From the NCBI GenBank assembly GCA_001929475.1, contig LXFE01000144.1, positions 1 to 51,030 of the forward strand: DNA of 51,030 nt, given 5' to 3'. Source of the DNA: Neolecta irregularis DAH-3 (Eukaryota). A program made the position numbers and the translations under genes. The notes beneath the pieces are model-generated. The model was not told the DNA's origin, made no database searches, and was given only the letters and a program-made list of their open reading frames with translations. This document shows, in pieces, positions 1 through 28,314 of this stretch; position 1 is the stretch's first letter; every line of letters begins with the position of its first letter.

Positions 1-550
1 TCTAATTCGCGATTCCTTATCCTATCTGCTTGGCACGGTTCTGCTTCTGACGTCGGTCCTCTGTTTCTTAAGAGTATCTTCGTACAGGGAGTATGGGGCG
101 TGCTGACGAGTCACCGTATATAAAACGGGGCTTAGCTTAGCTTTTCCTTTTTTTAACTTACAGCATGTACTGGAAGGAAGTATGTTGAGTTCTGCAGGTA
201 TATAGATTAGTCCTCCGCCCCTCTTTCTTTCAATCCACAATCAAAATATATCAAAGATCAAAAGCACAACTCTAAGAACCATATCCGTCGTTACCCTCCC
301 TTCCACCTCAACTGACAATCACTCTACACCCATCCTTTTCCTGACCTTGACCCTAGGGACGGATTCTGAGCGACAAGCTCGTTTTTTGGCCAATTTATAT
401 AGTTCAATATCAAATTCACTAAATAACCGAAATTGCTAATATAAAATGATTTCTTAGTAGGTGAAGTATGCCTCAATACTCGCAAAGTTTCACGTCGAAT
501 CATCTGGATCAACGTGTCACGTGACCAGTAACATTTCTTGCGGGCATAAC

Positions 551-870
551 TTAGAGCGAATGGCAATCAATTCACAGTTGAGCAACCAGCTAACGGATTC
601 AAACGAAACAAGCACTATCAGGATCGGAATTTAAAGGCGAAACTAATGGCCTGCCAACAAATTCAATACAAGAAAGTCAAATGGGGACCTTGGAGGAAGC
701 ATAGGAAGCGCCACATGTAAGTGCTGTATTCAAAACACATCACAGGAAACCGTAATTACTACTGGCGGATGCGCCTCAACGAGGGCTTTCCAACGGTACC
801 AAAATCATTGAGATTGGAGCACTCTCCAGGTGGGTGGTTTGGATCTCTTAGTGAAGGCGGGCGGTATAAG
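551..870 (+). repeat. Dispersed repeat, part A (direct copy of ~50246-50492)
   Basis: gcaatcaattcacagttgagcaacc...tttaaaggcgaaactaat...ctgccaacaaattcaatacaagaaagtcaa...ggtttggatctct..gtgaaggcg recurs with substitutions at 50258-50490. Confidence 0.9.
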
Positions 871-1495
871 TGACGGGAATGGAGAAGTAATGCAGGCGAT
901 GGCACGGGTTATAACACGGCCGCGATGACCACAGCTACCTGTGCCGCTTCATATTTGCAAGCATCGCCCTCCCACTGTTCAACAACCACGAGGACTGCAG
1001 CAGCGGCAACTTTGATCTCGTTGACCTAAAATCGAGACCATCCCCGTCGCCCTCGTGCACCAGACATCGTCTCCCTCACCATTTCAAAAAGCTGTCCCAT
1101 CAGCTGCCCTCAGGTTTACCTTGGAGTGTCCTCGATCATCGGGGGTATTCAGACACCTGAGGAGCCGCTGGGTAGCTTTCAGGGGGCTGAAGATTCTCCT
1201 GTTTGGCCCCACACACAACGGCAAACCCCGGATGAAACCTAGAGGACGCCACAAGCCGTGGGCGTCCTCCCAGTCCGGATCCCCTCGTGGAAAGTGTTCC
1301 ACAGGGACCAGTCAGATGACCGGACGGTGGCGCGGGAGGACGGGTATTCAGGTAGCGCCCAGCGCGATTAGCGCGCTATGCTTAACACTGTGTATTAATA
1401 CCAACGGTTATTACTACTAATAACCCTCGGCAACTATATACGACTTTAAGGCTCAGCGGAGTACAGACCAGACCGGTCAAGTACTCACACAAGCA

Positions 1496-2260
1496 ATGTC
1501 AAGTGACAAAGAAGACAAGAAGATGCCAACGACAAGGGCATCATTAGGGAAAGCAGTAAAGTTGGAAGATGCAGACAAGTCTACAGTATGTACCACTCGC
1601 CAGCTACCAATGTTTTCTGGTGCAGAAGACTGCTCCTTGACAGCGCGAGCATGGCTCAGTGTAGCCAAGCGGATTACCCGTGTGCGACAGAGTCAGGAAT
1701 ATTGTTCAGCTAAAGGACAGCTAGACGATCTAGCCTGTGCATTAACAGGGGATGCATCAATCTGGTTTGACGAGATAGAAGAGAATATCTCTACGGTGAA
1801 CCAGTTTTTTGAAGAATTCTCAGAGGAATTCTTGGACCCAAGCGAGATGTCCATTGTACAAGGCAAATTTGAGGTATTGAGGCAAGGGAATCGTTCAGTT
1901 GCTGAATATTCATCTGAATTTCAAGCACTCTGGAAGAAACTTGACCGGAGCCTCTACCCTGAAGTTATTATGGCCCGCAAATTCTGCCTCGGTTTACGAG
2001 CAAATGTCCAGATGACATTTACAGCTGCGATCCCTGAGTTGACCAGTGTTCGCAAGGCTATCAACATAGCACTAGTAGGAGAAGCAGCCCTGAATCTTCA
2101 AGCTCGAGAATCTATGAATTTGGCCCTAAGCACTGGTACATCAACTGAATCCAGTGAGAAGACTAAGCAACACTTGTACAAGGAGTGCTACCAGTGTGGA
2201 ACTCAAGGCCATTTCGCGCGTGACTGTATAAAGGGTCCAAAGAAGGGAGCAAACAATGCC
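1496..2260 (+). mobile_element. gag: LTR-retrotransposon gag (capsid + CCHC zinc knuckle) with no following protease/pol
   Basis: Retrotrans_gag-like motifs and CX2CX4HX4C; no pol sequence downstream. Confidence 0.9.
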
Positions 2261-3097
2261 CATATTTTTCGTTTGTTAATTATCCACTTGTTCTCACTGG
2301 TTCCCTTCGTCTTCTTTGCTCTCGCCCTTGCGACTCTCGTACCTGCTAAAAGTGGTAACAGTGGTACCTCAGGCCCACAATGGTTTAGTACATCCTAAAC
2401 ACCGTTCACATCCTGATAACCAGATTTTGCGACTATGAAATCGGGCGATATAAATGTTCATCAGTTGTCATTGTCTTCTTCTGGCACCGATCTCTTTCTC
2501 TCCAAGAACCCGCCGGACCTGCTTAAGCTTACTCTGGACGACTCTGGCTCCCTCGTCGATCCAGACATACGTATTGTGTCGGTAGATCCTGTTACTGGCC
2601 GTTGTTCGATTTCAAGTACACCTGAAAAAACAAATATCGCTGGTGTGTTCTCATTTGATTTTCCAAGATTGGAACTATCGTCGGGCGGTTCTACTTGCAG
2701 CTTTCTGGCTCGCCCGGATGGGGGGAGCGTTACATATCTCCTTTACGCTACAGGTGGAAAAGAAAAAACGCCCCCTACCGCATCTTCAGGTCATGCGAGT
2801 TCTACCCTTCCTAGCTCGAACCTCTCCAGCACCTTGGATTCATCGTCTATGAATGCGGACAGCTCTCTTGCCAATGGAACGGTCATTTCTCCATCTAATA
2901 CCGTCTCTCCCTCTGGAGAGTCCATTGATTCGTCGTTCAATAAAACAAATGGCACAAACGCGGGACCGCTTTGCACTTCAAATACCGGAACATCGAATGC
3001 CACTACTGGCAAGCCTAGTTCTTCCACAAAGAATGGTAGAGCAGAAGTATTGGCCGGGATCGTGGGCCTTGTTGCTTTTATGGCTATTCTGCCTTGA
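1496..3097 (+). CDS. Predicted chimeric gene: Ty3/gypsy-type Gag fused in frame to a GPI-type cell-wall protein; exons 1496-2387 and 2424-3097 (521 aa)
   Basis: Retrotransposon gag motifs (LTGDASIWF, LRQGNRSVAEYSSEF, KFCLGL) and knuckle CYQCGTQGHFARDC; hydrophobic LVPFVFFALALATLVPA; intron gtacat..ctgataaccag 2388-2423 restores frame (W-F-N-F-A-T-M-K); Ser/Thr-rich region; C-terminal SSTKNGRAEVLAGIVGLVAFMAILP. Confidence 0.65.
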
Positions 3098-3385
3098 TAA
3101 AAAAGGGTTTCACCAGTCAGTCTTTTGCAATTCTCTTACAAGTGCTCATTTTAAAGTACTCGGATTCATTTAATCATTGATTTCCGATCTTTCTGTCGAC
3201 CGGGAAATTCCTGGTTTTGAAGGACATTTTGTCGAGATCCGTTTGTATATATCCCTATTGTGGAAGTGATCTTCTGACCCTATTTACAAATTCAACAGCC
3301 AGTTGAGAACCTATAATTCTTCATAATCATGAGTACGCAGATTTCTTCATAACATGAACTGTCCTTCAAGTACCTAGTGAGCTGG

Positions 3386-4055: not shown

Positions 4056-4822
4056 ATGTTGGCTTTCGTCGCCCTTGTCCTTGTCGTCGCAGCCTTTGTA
4101 TCTGCTCAAAGTAATGCCATTGGGGAGTTCTCAGATTCAAGATCAATCAGTATGTCTTCTATACCTAGTCCACATGTTGATATCCAGGCTTTGTCAACAT
4201 TCGTCCAGGAACTAAGCTGAATTCCGCTCAATTGAGCCTTTGGGAGACGAATATTGTCATCAGCCGGAATTCTGGCAGCAATCTGAAGTTCACTCTTCTC
4301 GACGCGGGCAGCCGCATCAACCAAGAAGGACATAACCTATGGGTAGATCCAGCCTCTGGTATTTGTTCTATTGCGACCATCACTCCTGGGACCTCTGCGG
4401 TCGTTGGCAAATTCTCTCTCGATGATGGAGGATATTTGGCACTGTCATCGGATAATGAGCAATACGGTTTCCATGCTTGTCCAGATGCGAACAACAATTA
4501 CCTTCTTTACGCATTTCCCCTCTCTTCGGCTGTGATTCCGCAAAAGTGTTTCCCACTTAGCTTGATAGATACATCCCGAATGATAAACCAATCAGGTTCT
4601 CAAAACAGTGTTTCAAGTAATGCTGGTGGTAGTGGTAGCTCTGGCCCAAGCGACTTTAAATCCCTCAGTCCGGTCAGCTCATCGTTTAGTAAAGTAAATA
4701 CGACCTTCGCCAGTAAAAAGAACAACAGTAGTCCTAAGGAACCTAATTCCTCAACAAAAAATGGTAGAGCCAATGTGTTGGCAGGGGTCATGGGTCTTGT
4801 TGGCTTTTTTGCCTTGATGTAA
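4056..4822 (+). CDS. Secreted GPI-type cell-wall protein (PhiA/Cwp1-like), tandem paralog of the 2297-3097 moiety; exons 4056-4149 and 4188-4822 (242 aa)
   Basis: Signal peptide MLAFVALVLVVAAFVSA; intron gtatgt..ccag 4150-4187; GKFSLDDGGYLALS..GFHACP..YLLY motif; Ser-rich linker; C-terminal SSTKNGRANVLAGVMGLVGFFALM. Confidence 0.85.
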
Positions 4823-5586: not shown

Positions 5587-7338
5587 ATGCCCATGCTACT
5601 GAATCCACGCGAAAAATATGCTCCTTTCCAACCTTTGGAGCTCCCGACGCGCCAATGGCCATCAAAAACGCTGAAGAAGCCCCCAAGGTGGCTAAGCACA
5701 GATCTAAGGGACGGGAATCAAAGCTTGGTAGACCCAATGTCTGCGCAACAGAAACTTCAGTACTTTCGTACCTTGGTCTCAATCGGGTTTAAAGAAATTG
5801 AAATCGCATTCCCTAGCGCTTCCAGCATTGAATTCGATTTCGTTCGTGGGTTAATTCAAAATGGCGAAATTCCCGATGATGTTACAATTCAAGTTCTTAC
5901 GCCTTGCCGTGAAGATTTGATCCGCAAAACCATCGAATCGGTCCATGGGGCAAAGAAGGCAATCATTCATTTGTATAATGCTACAAGCCCTTGCTTCCGA
6001 CGAATCGTATTCGGTGCTTCGAAAGAAGCAACTGTGGAACTCGCCTTAACATCCACCAAACTTATTCGCCAGTTGACCAAAGACTCGGATTCCAAAACGC
6101 ACTGGACGTTTGAATACTCCCCGGAGACATTCTCCGCAACAGAGCCAGATTTTGCTATTGAAATTTGTTCCAAGGTACTAGAAGCATGGGATCCATCAGA
6201 ATCCAATGCAATCATTTTTAACCTTCCGGCAACGGTTGAAATGTCGACTCCAAATGTTTACGCAGACCAAATTGAGTTCTTCCACACTCGTATTCCCCGA
6301 CGAGCTGAAGTTTGCATATCTCTACATGCACACAATGATAGAGGATGTGCTGTAGCAGCATCCGAAATGGGCCAACTCGCGGGCGCAGATCGAATCGAAG
6401 GATGTCTCTTTGGAAACGGAGAACGTACAGGAAACGTAGACCTCGTTACTCTCGCCTTAAATCTGTACACCCAAGGTGTCTCACCAAATCTCGACTTCTC
6501 TCGACTCCATGAGATAAAACGCATTTGCGAATCTTGTAACGAAATCCAAGTGCACCCTCGCCACCCTTATTCTGGGGAACTTGTGTTCACCGCGTTCTCT
6601 GGATCTCATCAGGATGCGATTAAGAAGGGCTTTGAAAAACGCAAGGAAGGAGATATATGGGAGATGCCTTACCTTGCCATTGATCCCAAGGATATTGGCG
6701 CATCGTATGAAGCGGTCATCCGTGTAAACAGTCAATCTGGAAAGGGCGGAATCAGTTGGATTATTCTTCAAACGCTACATCTCGATCTTCCACGACGCCT
6801 TCAAATCGCTTTTTCCAAGGTCGTGCAACGGTCTGCAGAAACGTTGTCACGGGAACTTTCTGGGAAAGAAATCCGCGGATTGTTCCAGCGGGAATATTAC
6901 TTTGATGAAAAGATCAAACTGAAGAGTTATTCCTTCACTGAAGAAAATGAGAAGAAGAACATCAAAGCAGTCATTGAGAGAAAGGAAGAGTTGGTTGAGT
7001 TGGCGGGACAAGGAAATGGTGCGCTTTCTTCGCTTGTCGATGCTTTAAATCGACATTTCGATCTTCATCTTGATATCCGAGAGTATAGTGAGCATTCCAT
7101 CGGAGCTGGCAGTGGAGTCAAAGCTGCTTCGTACGTTGAACTAGTCAATGGTGACGATATACATTGGGGAGTCGGTCTGGATCCTGATATCGTTGGAGCT
7201 TCTCTTCGAGCTGTCATCAGTGCTTTTTCCGCCATTATTGGGGAACCCCTTGCAGATTTAAATCTCTCTTCTAACCGTGTCAGTGGACATGCCAAAAAGA
7301 TCCCAGGTAAAGCTGAGGAAGTCATTGCTATGGCATAG
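5587..7338 (+). CDS. LEU4: 2-isopropylmalate synthase (intronless, 583 aa)
   Basis: PRWLSTDLRDGNQSL, FEYSPETFS, NLPATVEM, SLHAHNDRGC, GNGERTGNVD, FSGSHQDAIKKG; C-terminal regulatory domain. Confidence 0.97.
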   Translation: MPMLLNPREKYAPFQPLELPTRQWPSKTLKKPPRWLSTDLRDGNQSLVDPMSAQQKLQYFRTLVSIGFKEIEIAFPSASSIEFDFVRGLIQNGEIPDDVTIQVLTPCREDLIRKTIESVHGAKKAIIHLYNATSPCFRRIVFGASKEATVELALTSTKLIRQLTKDSDSKTHWTFEYSPETFSATEPDFAIEICSKVLEAWDPSESNAIIFNLPATVEMSTPNVYADQIEFFHTRIPRRAEVCISLHAHNDRGCAVAASEMGQLAGADRIEGCLFGNGERTGNVDLVTLALNLYTQGVSPNLDFSRLHEIKRICESCNEIQVHPRHPYSGELVFTAFSGSHQDAIKKGFEKRKEGDIWEMPYLAIDPKDIGASYEAVIRVNSQSGKGGISWIILQTLHLDLPRRLQIAFSKVVQRSAETLSRELSGKEIRGLFQREYYFDEKIKLKSYSFTEENEKKNIKAVIERKEELVELAGQGNGALSSLVDALNRHFDLHLDIREYSEHSIGAGSGVKAASYVELVNGDDIHWGVGLDPDIVGASLRAVISAFSAIIGEPLADLNLSSNRVSGHAKKIPGKAEEVIAMA

Positions 7339-19900: not shown

Positions 19901-22900
19901 TGGAAGGAACAAGTGACATGAGTGGAGTTCGAAGGGCCGAAACTGAACGCCAGCGACGAATCAAAGCTGAACAGCATGCGAAAGCTAGACTGACGCCCGA
20001 TCTTGCTCCTCTACATAAAATAATTCTCTCCTGGTCACCTCATCATGAAGGGCCTCTACCTCCCGATGCGAAAGAGAGTGATTACCTCAAAGTTTCGAAT
20101 AAATTCAATTCTGCCGAAAGATACGCTCAGACTTTCCAGCCATTACTTATGCTCGAAGCATGGCAACAGATTGTCCGGGCAAAAGAAGAATGTGGGACCG
20201 AAATATTCAAACTTAAAGTCGAAGGGCGTAGCTCTGTCGATGAAATGGTCGAAATTCAGGGTAATGTCGATCATGAAACTTTTCGATCTCATAAACTCGG
20301 CGATACCGATGTTATTGTCTTGAGTAATAGCGCCAATCCATTTGACCAAGGCCCTGCTAATTTCTCTTTCATGGCCAAAGTTCACGGGGTTTTAAGAAAA
20401 AAGGATACAGTTGAGATTTCAGTTCGCTGTGTACCTCCATATACTGTTATCCAACAATTACGAACCAGGATAGAGTACTTCGCTGTGAAGCTTATTGGGT
20501 GCGTTTGGGCGTTGGGGGTAAAAAGCTAATTCAAGGCTTACACCTATCCATCGGGAATATAGCGCTTTGAAAGGACTTGCTTATTACGATCTCTGCGATG
20601 ATATAGTCTGTGGTAGGCCCTGTATCATTCAGAATCCGCTTCCTCAGATCATTCGTGAAACTATGAGTGCATACAATCTTAATGAGCCACAAGCCAAAGC
20701 TGTTGCTGCTGCTCAAAACGTAGAAGGCTTTAGTCTGATCCAAGGGTAAATTCAATCCAGCTTGACACATTGCTTATACAATAAGGCCCCCAGGAACAGG
20801 AAAGACGAAAACGATCTTGGGCATGGTCGGTGCGTTCCTTACGGATCAAAGAAATAAGCCTGTTCAAATTGCCCGTCCGGGGATGACGATGATCAAATTA
20901 AACCCAGCAAAAATCCTTCTTTGTGCACCTAGTAACGCAGCTGTGGACGAAATTTTACTCAGACTTAAAGGCGGGATCTTGGACGCCAAAGGGGAGAAGT
21001 GGAGTCCAAAGGTCGTTCGCATAGGTCATTCTGACATGGTCAATGTCGCTGTGAAAGATATGACATTGGAAGAACTGGTTGATCGCGCAATGGGGAACTT
21101 ACAATCCTCCAACGTTGATCCCAGCGCAATTCGAGAGATGCTTAACAAAATTCTTCAAGAGCGGGATTCATTAAAACACGAAGCTGACCAACTTCGCCAA
21201 AATAATCAAGACACATCAGCTCTTGAAGAAAAGATTCGCTCTCTAAACCAAAAGAAATTGAAAATTGGCCAAGAACTCGATGATGCTCGTGATAAACAGA
21301 ATACAGATAATCGGCGGCGTGACTTTCAAAGGAGGAGTTTGCAAATGGAAATCCTGAACAATGCCGAAGTAATTTGTTGTACATTGAGCGGTAGTGGTCA
21401 TGAGATGTTGACAAGCATGGCAGTCAACTTCGAAACTGTCATCATCGACGAGGCTGCTCAATGTATCGAACTAAGTGCTCTCATTCCGCTAAAGTATGGA
21501 TGCAAAAGATGCATATTAGTCGGAGGTCTACTCTTCCTCAAGTACCATACTGAAGATGTAGATCCCAATCAATTACCACCAACTGTCCTATCCCAAGCCG
21601 CAGCGGGCTATGCATATGAACAGAGTCTCTTTGTGCGAATGCAGGCAAATCATCCTCAATTGGTCCATCTCCTCAGCATTCAGTATCGAATGCATCCAGA
21701 AATATCACTTTTTCCTAGTCGTCAGTTCTATAATTCGAAACTTCTCGATGGCTCAAATGTGGCGATAGATACAAAACGCCCATGGCATAAAAGTTCGCTG
21801 TTCACTGAGTACCGTTTCTTTGATGTAGGTGGTCGTGAGGAAGTGGGCAAAACTCGCTCTGTCATGAACAGAATGGAAATAAATGTTGCAATTCAACTTT
21901 ATGACCGACTACAGGCCGATTTTCCAAAAGTTGATGTCAGTATATCCTGAAATAGTCCTTTGACATTCTAGTTTGACGGGAAAATCGGTATTGTTACACC
22001 CTATAAACAGCAATGGCGTGAACTTAAACGACAGTTCCAAAATAAATACGGCGGAATGATATTCAATTCAGTAGATTTTAACACTGTTGACGGGTTCCAG
22101 GGTCAAGAGAAAGATATTATCATATTCTCTTGTGTGCGAGCTTCGGAAGGTACTGGAATCGGGTTTCTTGCAGATGTTCGGCGTATGAATGTTGCTTTGA
22201 CTAGGGCGAAAAGTTCCTTGTTTATTTTAGGAAATGTGAACAGCTTGGAAGGCAATAGCTATTGGAGAGCACTAATTCGAGATGCAAGAGAACGAAACCT
22301 TATAACCCGGGTACGCTTTTGCTATACCGTATGCTGATATACAGTGGAACCCTGGATTGTTTCGAAATAGGATTAAACCTCGCGAAAATCACTACCAAGA
22401 CAAAGAATTTAAAAAATCCAATGATCTCATAATCACCGCTGAGAATCATCATGTATATCAACCTCAACTAAACCTGGTCAACAGACACTCTGAGTCACTA
22501 GCTTCTCTGACAGCCCAACCTGGATTATCTGGCTCAATTTCCGCACAGAAACCTTCAAACTCTTCCAGCGTTAGAGAGGCCCCCATTAAAATCTCTCGAG
22601 CGGAAGACTGTGCCATTCGTAGGGCGAACGTCACTAAAAAACGAATTGCAGAACAGCCAACAGAGGATCCTATTAAATCAAGACCACTAAAGCAGTCCAA
22701 GAAGGAAGATCTTCAATCTGCAAATTCCAAAAAGGTACACTTTGCCATGATATTGGTATTTTGACTAAAATAAGATTTCTGAATTCCCCAACGGAGACAA
22801 GGAGACTCCCCCATTGAACGAGAGCCCGAAACCCCCTATTGTACTGGTAAAACGTCCCAAAAAAGAGGTGGATATTTTCATTCGTAGAAAACCCGGGCAG

Positions 22901-22947: not shown

Positions 22948-24980
22948 TTAGAAGAGTAATTTAGGCTAGTATAGATATTGGACCAGGCAGGCATCATAGT
23001 GTGGAGTTTGATATCATTACAGAGCATATTGGGGTGGGATTTGGGAAAGGCGTCTTCAGGGATTTTATTTTATTGTCTAATGTCATACAATTTCCATTGC
23101 AGTATCTCCATTATAGATCTGACAAAAGGAGCAAGGTAATTACCTTGCTGCTTTGGGTAAACAATTATGCATTAACATTGTGCATAAGTAAAGGAGTTTC
23201 AGTAACAGACTGTCAAGTAAGCCCCTGTTTAGCCTCTAAAACAGCGTCCAACAGTACATATTCATATTTATCTATGCAAGAAGAAGCATGTATTTACTCG
23301 TACATCCGACCAAAGCTTCTCTACGGGAATTTGCTTAAAGATCCGCGTGTATATGTCCGCTCTTCGTTCTCATACCAAATGCGTCAGTTGACTTTCAAAT
23401 AGCTCCTGCACAACCTTGATAATCTGAAGCCTTTTATAATGGCATTTCTCAACGAAAGAACCACTTATTGGAGATTCGATATGTGGTCTCTTGCATGGAT
23501 TTTTGGTCATTGGATAACCCCTGGCAAAATTTGCTGCGCAGTGACACTTTAATCCAATGTGATCGGCGTTGAGAATGTCAGTTTCCCTTCGTCCCATACG
23601 CCGACAATCCTTTGTGCACAGTCCCTGTCAATCGTGTTACATGGATCATGCCGTCCCATTTTTTGGTTCTCGCCAATTTCTAGCGATGCATACTTAAGAC
23701 CGCCTTTTCTTCGCTTTCTTAACCATATTGGAAGACAACCCTATTTCAGCTGTCATTTCTGATATCTTACTTTTATAGTCCGACAGAAACACGAAAAATC
23801 AGTCATTTCTCATTGTCGATCGTTTGACTGAGAATGAACGACGTCATATACGGTGATAAAATGGTTTTTACAATTCCGAGCATCTTTGAAAAGGAGGCAT
23901 CAAGGGATAAGCTCCTTTGCTTAATTCGCGAGGGAAGATTCGTTTTTCGAATAGCTGAAGTTTTCAATGGGAGCTGGATGAATATCGAACTGCTTAGGAC
24001 ACGAAAGGAGGTTCATCTTTTGATTTTCCTCAATAAAGATGGTACTGATTTGTCTCATAGGCCTTTAAATACCCATTTTTGTGTCCAAGAGATTGTATTT
24101 CTATGCTTCAATCGTTCCAGAAACCAAACCTCTCATCATATTCACAATTTGACTCCCCCTCAGAATTTTTTCGACCGATGGTAGATCTTCTACTAAGTCG
24201 CCTTGACGATGTCTGCGTCAGGTTGAGTTCTTTTTTCCTTTCTGTTGAATCTTAACCGCTAGATTGTCTGAAGTGTGGGATACTGAGTATCTTCCGAGGT
24301 GCTCAAATGGCTCTCGGCTGCAGTTCTCTCTGCCTAGTCCAACATATACATTTTCGCCTCGGAATAGATATACTGTTTATGGCGATACAAAACTTCCCGG
24401 CGCTGTGAGCAACGAGAAGCAGCCCTCAATATTTCCTTTCCTGGTATGTCAGATGAGTACCCGGTGCCTGGCCCCCTCAGATGCAAACAATGTTGCTGAC
24501 ATCAAAGGGATACTCAACCCAAGGTTGACATTGATAGTGATTTATATCTTGCAATGTCAAAAATGCTTCATATCTTCGCATCTGTGGGAATATTTAGCCT
24601 CAGGGTATTCGGGTTGCTTTGTAAAGGCTCAAAATTTTCCATTTATACCGGTCGTTTATCAACTTTGAATCCTCGTGCATCATTATCCACTCGTTACAGG
24701 GTATATGTCTTCTCAGTGGAATTTAACCAACTCGCAGACTGAAATTCAGCTGATATTTCAAATCAATATCACCGAAAAGGAACATCCAAAATCTTTGGAG
24801 AAATTTCACTTTGTGAATTCGGAAGTTTTGGAACGTTTTAGGATGTTGTGCAATATTCTGTGGGCCATTCTGCACGAGGGGAAGAAGCGTATTTATGAGG
24901 CTATCGACACGCGAATCAAGGACATTACCTAATTTCATACTCCTCTAGTTACTAGATGAGTACCTTCCTGTGTAATCTAT

Positions 24981-25372
24981 TGTGACAAAGAGAGAAAAAT
25001 TCCTGTGCTGCATCTGGTCATATTTGTTGATCCAAAATGTCAGCACTACCTGGGGTTGGGTGCTGATGTGGACTTGGGTTGGATAGGCTAACGTAGATAC
25101 TATGAGCAAGAGTAACTACATATATTGAATATCAGGTGAAGACTAGCCAGCTACTCCAACTAGGCGCTACTTATATACAGATTCGGCACATGTGCTGCTA
25201 CTGCCATCTGCCTGCCTGTCTTTCTGTTGCCTTGCAGGGTGGCGGGTTTGTGACGGGCCCGACTGGGATGAGCTGCGGCCCTTGCTGCTCTCTGTGCTCC
25301 TTCCGACGATTGGGCGGTGGCGGTGGCAAGCTGGTGGGGGTTGCGCCGGTGGAGTAAAGTTGTGTCTCCACA
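24981..25372 (-). mobile_element. 3' LTR of a chromovirus-type element (~390 bp; left boundary 24969-24981)
   Basis: On the minus strand a G-rich polypurine-like tract (gggccggggggg) is directly followed by TGTGGAGACA; internal tatataag; ends ..CACA. Confidence 0.65.
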
Positions 25373-25890
25373 CCCCCCCGGCCCACAGGAAATTCCGTTC
25401 CGGTTTCCTTGACCTGTAACTGAATTTTTTGGGGGTTAACAAATAATTGAATTGACTCTTGCGCGTTCTTCAAGTGACTTTCCAGTTCCCAAGATGCTCC
25501 TCATCTGGGAAGCCTTTCGATTTGACAAGGTAAAAATTATTCCCTTTCCGGGTCTGATGGTCGCAGACTTTCTCGACATCATGCTCTGGGAACCCGTCTT
25601 GGAAATAAATCGGTGGCGGATATATGGTGGTCGATTCGGGAATAGCGTGGTGTCATTTCCTTGAAATTTCTTAAGCGACGTGTGGAACTTTGTGAAGTTT
25701 CGCATGTCCAGTGGAAGTTTTAGCTCGTGATTACCACTAGTGCCGACATGCGTTATAGGATAGGGGCCAATCCACTTTGGTATCAGCTTCTTACACGTCC
25801 CATCCTTTGCTGTAAAGTTCCGCGTCGAGAGCAGGACCAGGTCCTCTAGCTCGTACTCATTCCCTCGTTTCCGCGATTTGTAACAAAACC
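25373..25890 (-). pseudogene. Ty3/gypsy integrase C-terminus (GPY/F) plus chromodomain, two frameshifts
   Basis: DLVLLSTRN..KKLIPKWIGPYPI..ELKLP..FHTS; shifted frame PPPIY..EHDVEKVCDHQTRKGNNFYLVKSKGFPDEE; shifted again WELESHLKNAQESIQLF. Confidence 0.9.
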
Positions 25891-26160
25891 TCTCAGATCC
25901 GAGATAAACCAATTCTGTTGATTGGCACCCGTCCAGCATACTGAATCTAGTACGGCCAGGCCAATATCCACCCGCACCCGCCGAAGATTGACCTTTAAAG
26001 AAGAGCAGGTATTTTGAGGGGGTCGCTGCTATTTCCGATTGTTTCAGCTCTGATGCGCCGGTTCCACCGGAATTCTGACTGCAACAGCATCACGTGGCTT
26101 TCCTCTGAGATCGCATTACATTAAGGCGGTCGTTGCCCCTCACACGTTCCTCTTGATAGC

Positions 26161-28314
26161 ATGGCTGCTTTTGATGCGATGTCGACTATAGTAGACTCAC
26201 TGTCAGATTTTCCTGCTTTATGTCCATTTGATCCAATCACACCATCTGAAATTAATCTTACATCTGAGATTGTCAAGGCTGAATATGCCGACGCATCTTT
26301 GATGTTCAAAACTATTTCTCTAAAGGAGCCAAATAAGGATGCTACAGTAGCTTGGTTGAAAGCTGGAAAAAAAGGACCACCTCCTCTGCGCATCTCGTTT
26401 GCCCGCTTCTACAAGAGGGGAGACCGCTCTTACCATGAAGCTGTCGTCAATCTGACACGGAGAAAGATTGTCGAAAAGATAGCTCTCCCGAGCCATTTCC
26501 ATGGAAGACTCGATATAGAAGGCATGAATCAGGCTATCGAGATCGCCCTCGCAGATCCGTTAGTTCACGCCGAGATCGAAAGACTCAATCTGCCAAAAGG
26601 ATCTAAAGTCGCCGCTGAACCCTGGATGTATGGCAGCGACCGGATTGATCCCGGTAAACTTTTATGGCAGGCATTATAAGCGTCTTATTATCCTATGCTC
26701 ACGATTTAGATGTTCTTCTACCTCCAGTTGAACGACAACCCGCAACACAATCTTTATGCCCATCCTCTTGACTTTTCATGTGTCCTCGATCAGTTTGAGG
26801 GGAAAGTACTGAAAATTGTACGCCTTCCCCTCACTGAAGAGCCAAACAGCTTTGCAAAAGACGACCAAAAGTGGGTACAGACGGAAGATTCAGAATATGC
26901 CCCGGATTTCCAGAAAGAGATGCGCACAGACGCAAAGCCAATTGTGGTGACTCAGCCGGAAGGAACGTCGTACAAGATTACTAGAAATATAGTCAAATGG
27001 CAGAAATGGGAGTTTCATTTAGGATATAACGACCGCGAGGTATGTCTACAGGGATTTCTTATTCTCATCTCATAGGGTCCTGTTCTCTATAATCTTACCT
27101 ACGGCGGCCGTCCAACCTTTTACCGTCTATCCCTTTGTGAAATGGTTGTTCCCTACGGCGATCCACGGGCCCCTTATCATCGTAAGGCAGCCTTTGATCT
27201 CGGTGATTTTGGTGCTGGACCGTGCGCAAATAATCTCCAACTTGGATGTGATTGTCTGGGCGTAATCAAATATTTCGACGGATACATCACGACGCAGGAT
27301 GGCCAGGCATTGAAGAAGGAAAATTCTGTTTGCCTTCACGAACAAGACGCTGGAATTGGGTGGAAACATACCAATTTCCGAACAGGTGCAGTTACAGTAG
27401 TCCGGAGTCGAGAGTTAGTCATCCAAACTATTCTAACCGTTGCAAATTATGAGGTTTGAATTTGCACTGATCCTACTTGACAGTATAGTATGTTTTCGCC
27501 TGGGTTCTTGATCAAGCAGCTGGGATTCATTTCGAAGTTCGGGCCACTGGAATTCTTTCAACCGTCCCAATATCAAAAGATATCAAATCAACTCCATGGG
27601 GCATCAGCGTCACTCCAGGCTGTTTTGCTCCAGTACATCAACATATCTTTTCGCTTAGAATCGACCCGGCGATAGATGGTTATGATGGAACTCATGTTTC
27701 GTACGAAGATACCCTGCCAATGCCATTGGATGAACACAATCCCTATGGTGTTGGATATGGTGTCTATAGCACAAAAATTGAAACGAGCGGATATTTCGAC
27801 ACTGACGTTTCCAAAAATCGAGTTGTAAAGATAGCCTCCAAGGATACCAAGAGCGACGTCACCGGAAAGAATAGAGCCTACAAACTTGTTCCGGCAGCTA
27901 CGCAATTGATGCTCGCGCACCCTGAATCCCTTCATCAACAACGAGCAGAGTTCGCTGACCACGCATTCTGGTATACACTTTTCCGCGAACTTTGTTAACT
28001 TTAGGGTGACCAAACATCGAGACGATGAATTATATGCTGGTTCTGACCATACAAATCAGTCGCGAGGAGGTCACGGCATCCGGTCTTGGGCCAAACGAAA
28101 TGAAGATCTCGAAGATAAGTCGGTCCTATGGCACACCTTTGGTTTCAGCCATTCTCCTCGGCTCGAAGACTTCCCAGTCATGCCTTGCGAAACTTTACGA
28201 GTTGCCTTGAAACCGAATGGCTTTTTTGATCGGAATCCACTGTTGGATGTTCCTGGAGATAACAAAGAGAAGAATGGAAGTGTTCTTTACGACCAAGCGT
28301 GTTGTGCAAAGTGA
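26161..28314 (+). CDS. Copper amine oxidase (4 introns, one GC-AG)
   Basis: PFDPIT, WQKWEFH, EMVVPYGDPR, LGCDCLG, TVANYE|Y (TPQ motif), HQH, H.PRLEDFPVMP. Confidence 0.95.

Follow-up and report, generated by a model that had tools for sequence, protein, structure and literature searches.

LTR-driven chimeric transcripts are a known phenomenon, and tetherin (BST-2) combines an N-terminal transmembrane segment and a C-terminal GPI anchor, and it has a cytosolic tail that is short and an ectodomain that forms a coiled coil. Co-opted gag genes are another system with which the locus described here can be compared, and in the account of them given in PMC8321522, three fungal co-opted gag genes trace to Ty1/Copia and Bel-Pao elements. 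Unlike those three cases, the gag that we describe here is of the Ty3 type. It lies in Neolecta irregularis DAH-3, where it shares one open frame with a gene for a putative GPI-type cell-wall protein, called gene A below. The window that we analyzed is a complete contig of 51,030 bases, and the coordinates of its relevant features are collected in Table 1.

Table 1. Features of the gag-gene A locus, its tandem paralog and short introns of the same contig
Feature	Position	Strand	Content and basis
Putative 5' LTR or upstream TE sequence	550-1350	+	GC content and repeat match; boundaries approximate
PBS-like 10-mer AGGTAGCGCC	1350-1359	+	137 nt upstream of the gag ATG
TATATA element	1435-1440	+	Read directly; downstream of the PBS-like site
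Gag-homologous coding part	1496-2254	+	Residues 1-253; capsid domain and CCHC knuckle (2183-2227)
Linker, 14 codons NAHIFRLLIIHLFS	2255-2296	+	Open in the gag frame only
Gene A exon 1	2297-2387	+	Begins with CTG; signal-peptide h-region and VPA-K site; aligned to NEOLI_001344 and NEOLI_000999
Gene A intron	2388-2423	+	36 nt, phase 1, GTACAT...CTGAT...CAG; predicted
Gene A exon 2	2424-3097	+	Ectodomain, Ser/Thr-rich stalk, C-terminal hydrophobic GPI-type signal, TGA
Tandem paralog B (NEOLI_000999)	4056-4822	+	Exons 4056-4149 and 4188-4822; intron 4150-4187 (38 nt, phase 1); intact, with ATG
Short introns in the contig	22311-22344, 27040-27075, 30030-30071, 4150-4187		Examples, inferred; 34-42 nt, starting with GTA

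Results

The gag half and the DNA around it

The ORF at 1496-2398 encodes 300 aa and contains a complete Ty3-type Gag. When compared with Pfam, residues 81-168 match Retrotrans_gag (E 9e-14; 51.9 bits, cut-off 24.1) and residues 230-244 match zf-CCHC (3.8e-5; 24.0 bits, cut-off 20.8), and a Ty3_capsid match likewise exceeds its cut-off (1.4e-8; 34.8 bits, cut-off 29.1). An exhaustive HMMER search with Gag returned 383 matches at E values up to 0.001, only two of which fall below 1e-30; no representative matched Gag at 100%. The two top relatives also come from N. irregularis, where short contigs encode them as gag-only proteins: NEOLI_004467 (288 aa; 59% identity, or 131/222, over query residues 30-251; E 3e-78) and NEOLI_004825 (248 aa; 37% identity). 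Homology to each of them ends abruptly at KKG/KKK, at about residue 253 and nucleotide 2254. With a nearest known relative of only 59% identity, gag is not demonstrably a recent copy of an active element. A word-indexed protein search with Gag, covering lengths of 165-525 aa, scored no protein, yet NEOLI_004467 is in the same collection, and the result is thus an unreliable negative. Matches from a PDB sequence search were at the level of the zinc knuckle only, the best being HIV nucleocapsid (E 0.0067), with the PEG10 capsid at E 0.61. Scanning metagenomes for Gag relatives produced 80 pattern matches, none of which was confirmed by tblastn. The GC3 of gag (0.44) is no different from that of gene A (0.43), paralog B (0.44) and the neighboring 2-isopropylmalate synthase gene (0.42), and it is uninformative on age.

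The DNA upstream of gag differs in composition from its surroundings, with a GC content of 0.53-0.60 over 801-1400 versus 0.35-0.46 in adjoining non-coding DNA. Two parts of this upstream region, 550-702 and 817-859, match 50244-50396 and 50439-50481 in the same orientation at 87% and 91%, respectively, and the copy near the 3' end of the contig (50244-50481) lacks the middle 114 bases. A repeat placed near both contig ends in this way may be an LTR fragment or some other dispersed repeat that broke the assembly. The PBS-like 10-mer agrees at 9 of 10 positions with TGGTAGCGCC, which we take to be the complement of the initiator-tRNA 3' end; three one-mismatch matches occur in the window versus 1.31 expected, and the site is suggestive by its position alone. 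Downstream of it, a TATA-like element that a first-pass annotation had placed at about 1435 can be read as TATATA.

Self-BLAST of 1-3200 and tblastn of Gag revealed no second gag copy or LTR pair in the window, and no direct repeat of 1-1495 occurs downstream of gag within the window. The presence of a single LTR-like sequence, with none downstream of gag, fits a 3'-truncated relic. Gene A lies directly 3' of gag, where pol would be expected for a Ty3/gypsy-type element, and no protease, RT, RNase H or integrase-core family was found among the Pfam-scanned ORFs adjoining or downstream of gag. Because the relic was assembled through within a 51-kb contig, many near-identical copies of it are unlikely. 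The first-pass annotation had also described the other coding TE relics of the window as broken, and the one that we found agrees with that description. It is a stop-free frame at 25439-26089 (minus strand) with a Tf2-1-type integrase SH3 match (E 1.3e-6, just under the Pfam cut-off), which adjoins a copper amine oxidase gene and has no DNA similarity to 1-3200; we read it as what seems to remain, in isolation, of the 3' part of pol from a different Ty3/Tf-type element. Nine other stop-free frames of at least 70 aa from 22965-25500 had no Pfam matches, and scans of the whole window yielded no Rfam matches and no tRNA genes.

The wall-protein half and its frame

From the zinc knuckle, the gag frame passes without a stop through the linker and into the signal-peptide region of gene A. 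Once 2388-2423 is removed, it remains open to TGA at 3095-3097, giving a fused ORF of 521 aa. The linker contains the TE/gene junction, and its source may be the tail of the TE or the former 5' UTR of gene A. The stretch of gene A that begins at CTG 2297-2299, LVPFVFFALALATLVPAK, aligns with the signal peptide of paralog B (ATG at 4056) and is closer still to NEOLI_001344, whose N-terminus is MVSPFVFALALATLV. Because NEOLI_001344 begins MVSPFVF..., the CTG of gene A occupies the family's ATG position, and both intact paralogs, NEOLI_001344 and NEOLI_000999, have ATG there.

The predicted intron of gene A (GTACAT...CTGATAACCAG) has the same phase and the same aligned site as the annotated 38-nt intron of paralog B. 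The latter is validated by the fact that the spliced model of paralog B is identical, letter for letter, to the annotated 242-aa NEOLI_000999. Spliced gene A is colinear with NEOLI_001344 across the junction (WF-N-FA versus WF-T-FA), and if the intron is retained, translation meets a stop at 2396-2398, the end of the 300-aa ORF. The gene A intron is compatible with the local introns in size and branch-site motif, and its A at +5 may fit local usage. Intron calls in the window were made ab initio, from adjacent open frames; where just one solution existed, which was the case for three ORF junctions, the introns measure 34, 36 and 42 nt and start with GTACGC, GTATGT and GTAACG, and the other junctions were ambiguous. 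The predicted introns of this contig are extremely short, and G at +5 is apparently not obligatory in them.

The C-terminal part of gene A was compared with its paralogs by inspection and hydropathy. Its Ser/Thr-rich stretch and hydrophobic tail, SSTKNGRAEVLAG..., are nearly identical to those of NEOLI_001344 and B, and the GPI-type signal, judged by the same means, is a candidate. Only two hydrophobic segments are present in the 521-aa fusion, at residues 254-287 and 502-521. The first of these, 34 residues long, is preceded by lysines on its N-terminal side, and 10 more hydrophobic residues from the linker extend the signal-peptide region N-terminally. Given the two hydrophobic segments and the N-side lysines, a topology consisting of cytosolic Gag, anchor, ectodomain and GPI tail is a fair reading, if the fusion is translated.

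Much of this anatomy had been proposed in the first-pass annotation, and the Pfam domains and alignments bear it out. The gag frame does run stop-free into a paralog-like signal peptide; comparison with both B and NEOLI_001344 places CTG 2297-2299 at the paralog's ATG; the 36-nt phase-1 intron coincides in site with the paralog's 38-nt intron (4150-4187); and exon 2 is intact, with a GPI-type end that closely resembles those of the paralogs. The two products that had been envisaged also agree with our reading, namely a Gag/signal-anchor/ectodomain/GPI protein, if translated, and, upon intron retention, a 300-aa Gag with a hydrophobic tail.

Gene A within its family

A search of 5.8 billion proteins with exon 2 of gene A found one close relative, NEOLI_001344 (73% identity, 100% coverage), a 279-aa protein encoded on another contig of 38,972 bases; 203 of the 253 aligned columns between it and gene A are identical. 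NEOLI_001344 and NEOLI_000999 are only 31% identical to one another. When a profile of gene A, NEOLI_001344 and B was used in a search of 5.8 billion proteins, only NEOLI_001344 and NEOLI_000999 were retrieved, and the family therefore has three known members. In the reading that we favor, gene A belongs to a set of three GPI-type wall-protein paralogs that is specific to Neolecta. The relationships of gag and of the wall-protein paralogs are real homology.

No Pfam family exceeds its cut-off for gene A, B or NEOLI_001344; NEOLI_001344 has a weak DUF7908 match (E 2.6e-4) that lies under the cut-off. In the ESM Atlas, a cluster named 'Cell wall protein CWP1' matches NEOLI_001344 with a feature score of 0.95, and clusters named 'Cell wall' and DUF7907 align with residues 25-164 of its Atlas model at a query-based TM of 0.41-0.44. 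We treat this apparent likeness to fungal cell-wall proteins as providing leads only. AlphaFold2 modeling of NEOLI_001344 with a 3-sequence alignment reached a mean pLDDT of 34.1, which is unusable for judging disulfides or the segment deleted from gene A. A metagenome scan with exon 2 produced 379 pattern matches for gene A relatives, none of them confirmed by tblastn. Separately, the 583-aa 2-isopropylmalate synthase ORF at 5587-7338 (plus strand) belongs to a 90% cluster that is represented by a sequence from a metagenome contig of JGI/IMG (1,874 bases), indicating that Neolecta-like DNA is present in at least one public metagenome.

Several changes at conserved features are specific to gene A. 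These include M to L at the start and S to P at position -2 of the VSA cleavage motif. Three cysteines are common to NEOLI_001344 and B, and gene A keeps the first of them. The second lies in ACP in B and AC in NEOLI_001344 and is replaced by R in gene A, where the ARP noted in the first-pass annotation is indeed found. The third, which is 23 residues past the second in both NEOLI_001344 and B, is taken out by a 22-residue deletion after KEK-PP (counted from the sequences). Two new cysteines are present at other places in gene A. Proline at -2 would disfavor signal-peptidase cleavage (von Heijne rule). The S to P change, and the M to L change within a hydrophobic stretch, would also be tolerable in a signal-anchor fusion.

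We also compared amino-acid relative rates in a three-way comparison of 225 gap-free columns. There are 13 changes unique to gene A versus 9 unique to NEOLI_001344 (p = 0.52), indicating that gene A is not faster-evolving overall. None of the 9 changes unique to NEOLI_001344 affects the start, cleavage motif, cysteine or deletion features.

Translation starts and annotation

The 5' region of gene A has no in-frame AUG between 2114 and 2435. From 2256 on, the AUGs comprise one that opens an out-of-frame 7-codon ORF (2256, with A at -3), one that opens an out-of-frame 2-codon ORF, and then 2435, within exon 2. A secreted gene A product is therefore left without any possible AUG start. The AUG-initiated, cleavable kind of signal peptide was not found in gene A, which has a CTG start and VPA in place of VSA. 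Several in-frame near-cognate codons occur at 2264-2297, including CTG 2297, TTG 2288 and ATC 2282, and none of them combines a purine at -3 with G at +4. CTG 2297 has T at -3; ATC 2282 is the sole near-cognate with A at -3, but it lacks G at +4. These contexts and the out-of-frame AUG at 2256 speak against initiation of the wall protein at the CTG, which the first-pass annotation had offered as an alternative.

Fruiting bodies of N. irregularis were the source of the DNA and RNA that were sequenced, and 99.4% of the 5,546 predicted genes are stated in PMC5309816 to have RNA-seq support. Annotated proteins exist for B, NEOLI_001344 and the two other gag ORFs. The 300-aa ORF and a 220-aa ORF that starts at ATG 2435 are absent from the protein collection, and gene A's own protein was not found in the ranges 122-391 and 115-489 aa. 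The lack of an annotated protein for the locus is a soft negative, as contiguous ORFs were looked up rather than the spliced 521-aa fusion.

Discussion

We consider it probable that a young, 3'-truncated Ty3/gypsy relic took the place of the 5' end in a wall-protein paralog that is redundant, and that the 521-aa frame is a by-product of this event and not a co-opted gene. The data show the anatomy, the homologies, the lesions and the chance estimate, and from them we infer how the events were ordered, that an LTR is present and that function is lacking. The relic would be that of a Ty3/gypsy-type LTR retrotransposon, with upstream LTR-like DNA, a PBS-like site, a leader and a complete gag, from which pol and the 3' LTR have been lost, and the break would precede gene A's start position by 0-42 nt. 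The event would have stripped gene A of its own promoter and 5' UTR, and the former ATG is now CTG. Insertion and deletion would thereby have left a Gag-wall-protein frame that is too young to have acquired stops in either half. With NEOLI_001344 and NEOLI_000999 intact, gene A would be redundant and in early decay, or at least freed from ancestral constraints. If the LTR/leader still fires, the transcript would presumably read through to the gene A terminator. Splicing of such a transcript would give a type-II membrane protein made of cytosolic Gag, a signal anchor that stays uncleaved, an ectodomain with damage and a GPI signal, and intron retention would give a 300-aa tail-anchored Gag.

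Judged against chance, the open frame across the junction is nothing remarkable. For a break close to where gag ends and gene A starts, the probability that the junction is in frame and stop-free over 14 codons is 0.15-0.17. In simulations, the probability that the whole fusion stays stop-free is 0.67, 0.40, 0.12 and 0.013 at 1, 2, 5 and 10% substitutions, respectively. Open frames are thus expected if the event is young, so that intactness points to a locus that is either young or selected and does not separate the two. The alternative that had been raised in the first-pass annotation, in which a copy in decay recently acquired the in-frame arrangement by chance, gives the best fit. Counting against a relic are the rate of gene A, which is not raised, its intact frame, intron position and phase, and GPI tail, and a complete gag whose nearest known relative is only 59% identical. 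If the locus is a relic only, it is a neat, small-scale case in which a single insertion and deletion took away the promoter and start of a gene and left a gene-like, long chimeric ORF, and it should serve as a warning in annotation and wherever scans favor open frames for their length.

Two simpler origins were rejected: a TE within an intron of gene A, because both paralogs begin at the aligned position, and gene A as a retrocopy, because its intron is kept.

It is unlikely that the relic serves only as a replacement promoter and 5' leader, with the normal wall protein still being made. The wall protein could be released if signal peptidase cleaves the internal signal, as happens in viral polyproteins, or it could be made from a non-AUG start on a transcript that begins inside gag. 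The intact mature part, intron and GPI tail of gene A, together with a rate like that of NEOLI_001344, are consistent with continued production, and the known phenomenon of LTR-driven chimeric transcripts counts for it too. For the first route, however, the proline at -2 would disfavor cleavage. The second has several in-frame near-cognates at 2264-2297 to draw upon, but their initiation contexts are poor (T at -3 of CTG 2297, no G at +4 of ATC 2282), and the out-of-frame AUG at 2256 has A at -3. The loss of conserved cysteines speaks against either route.

We judge it quite unlikely that the locus is a selected chimeric gene. Such a gene would be transcribed from the LTR/leader promoter and translated from the gag ATG, and its uncleaved type-II anchor would yield a membrane-tethered Gag with a GPI ectodomain, in a tetherin-like arrangement whose role could be to restrict TEs or to serve at the surface. 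A single frame of 521 aa that is open and has a 36-nt intron compatible with splicing would be expected of it, as would the presence of just two hydrophobic segments with a K-rich N side on the first. The S to P change at -2, which is specific to gene A, would disfavor cleavage by the von Heijne rule and so suits an anchor. Selection would also agree with the rate of gene A, which is not raised, and with a Gag that is complete though 41% diverged from its nearest known relative. Against these points, the ectodomain lacks two cysteines and a segment that are kept across paralogs of only 31% identity, no annotated protein was found for the locus, the junction is unremarkable by chance, and open frames fit a young neutral locus as well. 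Gag co-option, including one gag-host fusion (Crtg10-KELP), is documented in the account of PMC8321522. The first-pass annotation had proposed a co-opted capsid gene at this locus; its anatomy and predicted product stand, but co-option is quite unlikely, given that no annotated protein was found and four conserved features of the wall-protein half have changed.

A more specific history along these lines appears improbable to us. A Ty3-type Gag would have acquired three parts of a wall protein, namely its signal peptide, its ectodomain and its GPI signal, and the S to P change would have made the signal a permanent anchor, giving rise to a lineage-specific gene in an early-diverging ascomycete. 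If this were true, a protein with two anchors (TM and GPI) would hold a capsid protein to the plasma membrane on its cytosolic side. It could trap retrotransposon particles (dominant-negative Gag restriction) or link capsid-like assemblies to the cell surface. If expressed, the locus would represent the first reported Ty3-type gag exaptation in a fungus and a rare natural fusion of Gag to a secretory-pathway protein. If real, the fusion of a GPI wall protein with a Ty3-type Gag would be a novelty; nothing yet goes beyond a relic.

It is very improbable that the locus is an assembly chimera in which a gag-bearing repeat was joined at about 2255-2296 to a gene A that is not adjacent in the genome: the assembly is a short-read one with an N50 of 16 kb (PMC5309816), and only 1.5 kb separate the relic from the end of the contig, which has repeats at both ends, but the contig continues through the whole relic for another 0.5 kb, gag and gene A share no repeat at the junction that could mislead an assembler, 199-fold coverage is stated (PMC5309816), and the CTG for ATG is a point difference inside gene A-like sequence rather than a join.

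Returning to the young relic that we favor, comparison with known systems places the locus as follows. Its wall-protein half may resemble the GPI cell-wall proteins of fungi (those of the CWP1/PIR-like and DUF7907-7909 groups), as the Atlas matches of NEOLI_001344 suggest. Unlike them, gene A lacks an ATG and two conserved cysteines, and its family has no Pfam match above cut-off. The likeness to tetherin/BST-2 lies in predicted topology only (cytosolic N-terminus, one TM segment, ectodomain and GPI signal); there is no relationship in sequence or fold, and a 253-residue Gag and a wall-protein domain are present here. With the co-opted gag genes (Arc, PNMA, RTL/PEG10, the fungal Crtg12-14 and the plant Crtg10-KELP), the locus shares a stand-alone gag ORF without pol, and one of those genes is host-fused as well (PMC8321522). 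Those genes, however, are defined in the same account by orthologs above the family level, synteny, purifying selection and expression, whereas the present case is one of sequence anatomy alone. TE-gene chimeric loci, in which an LTR retrotransposon inserts close to the 5' end of a gene and a later internal deletion yields read-through ORFs that start in the TE, are alike in having a truncated element in the same orientation directly upstream, a replaced host promoter and start, and a TE ATG that leads into host exons. The present locus, known from its sequence only, differs from them in that a whole gag, and not just LTR/UTR sequence, is fused in frame, and in that the fusion point falls at the signal peptide, so that the predicted topology of the product changes.
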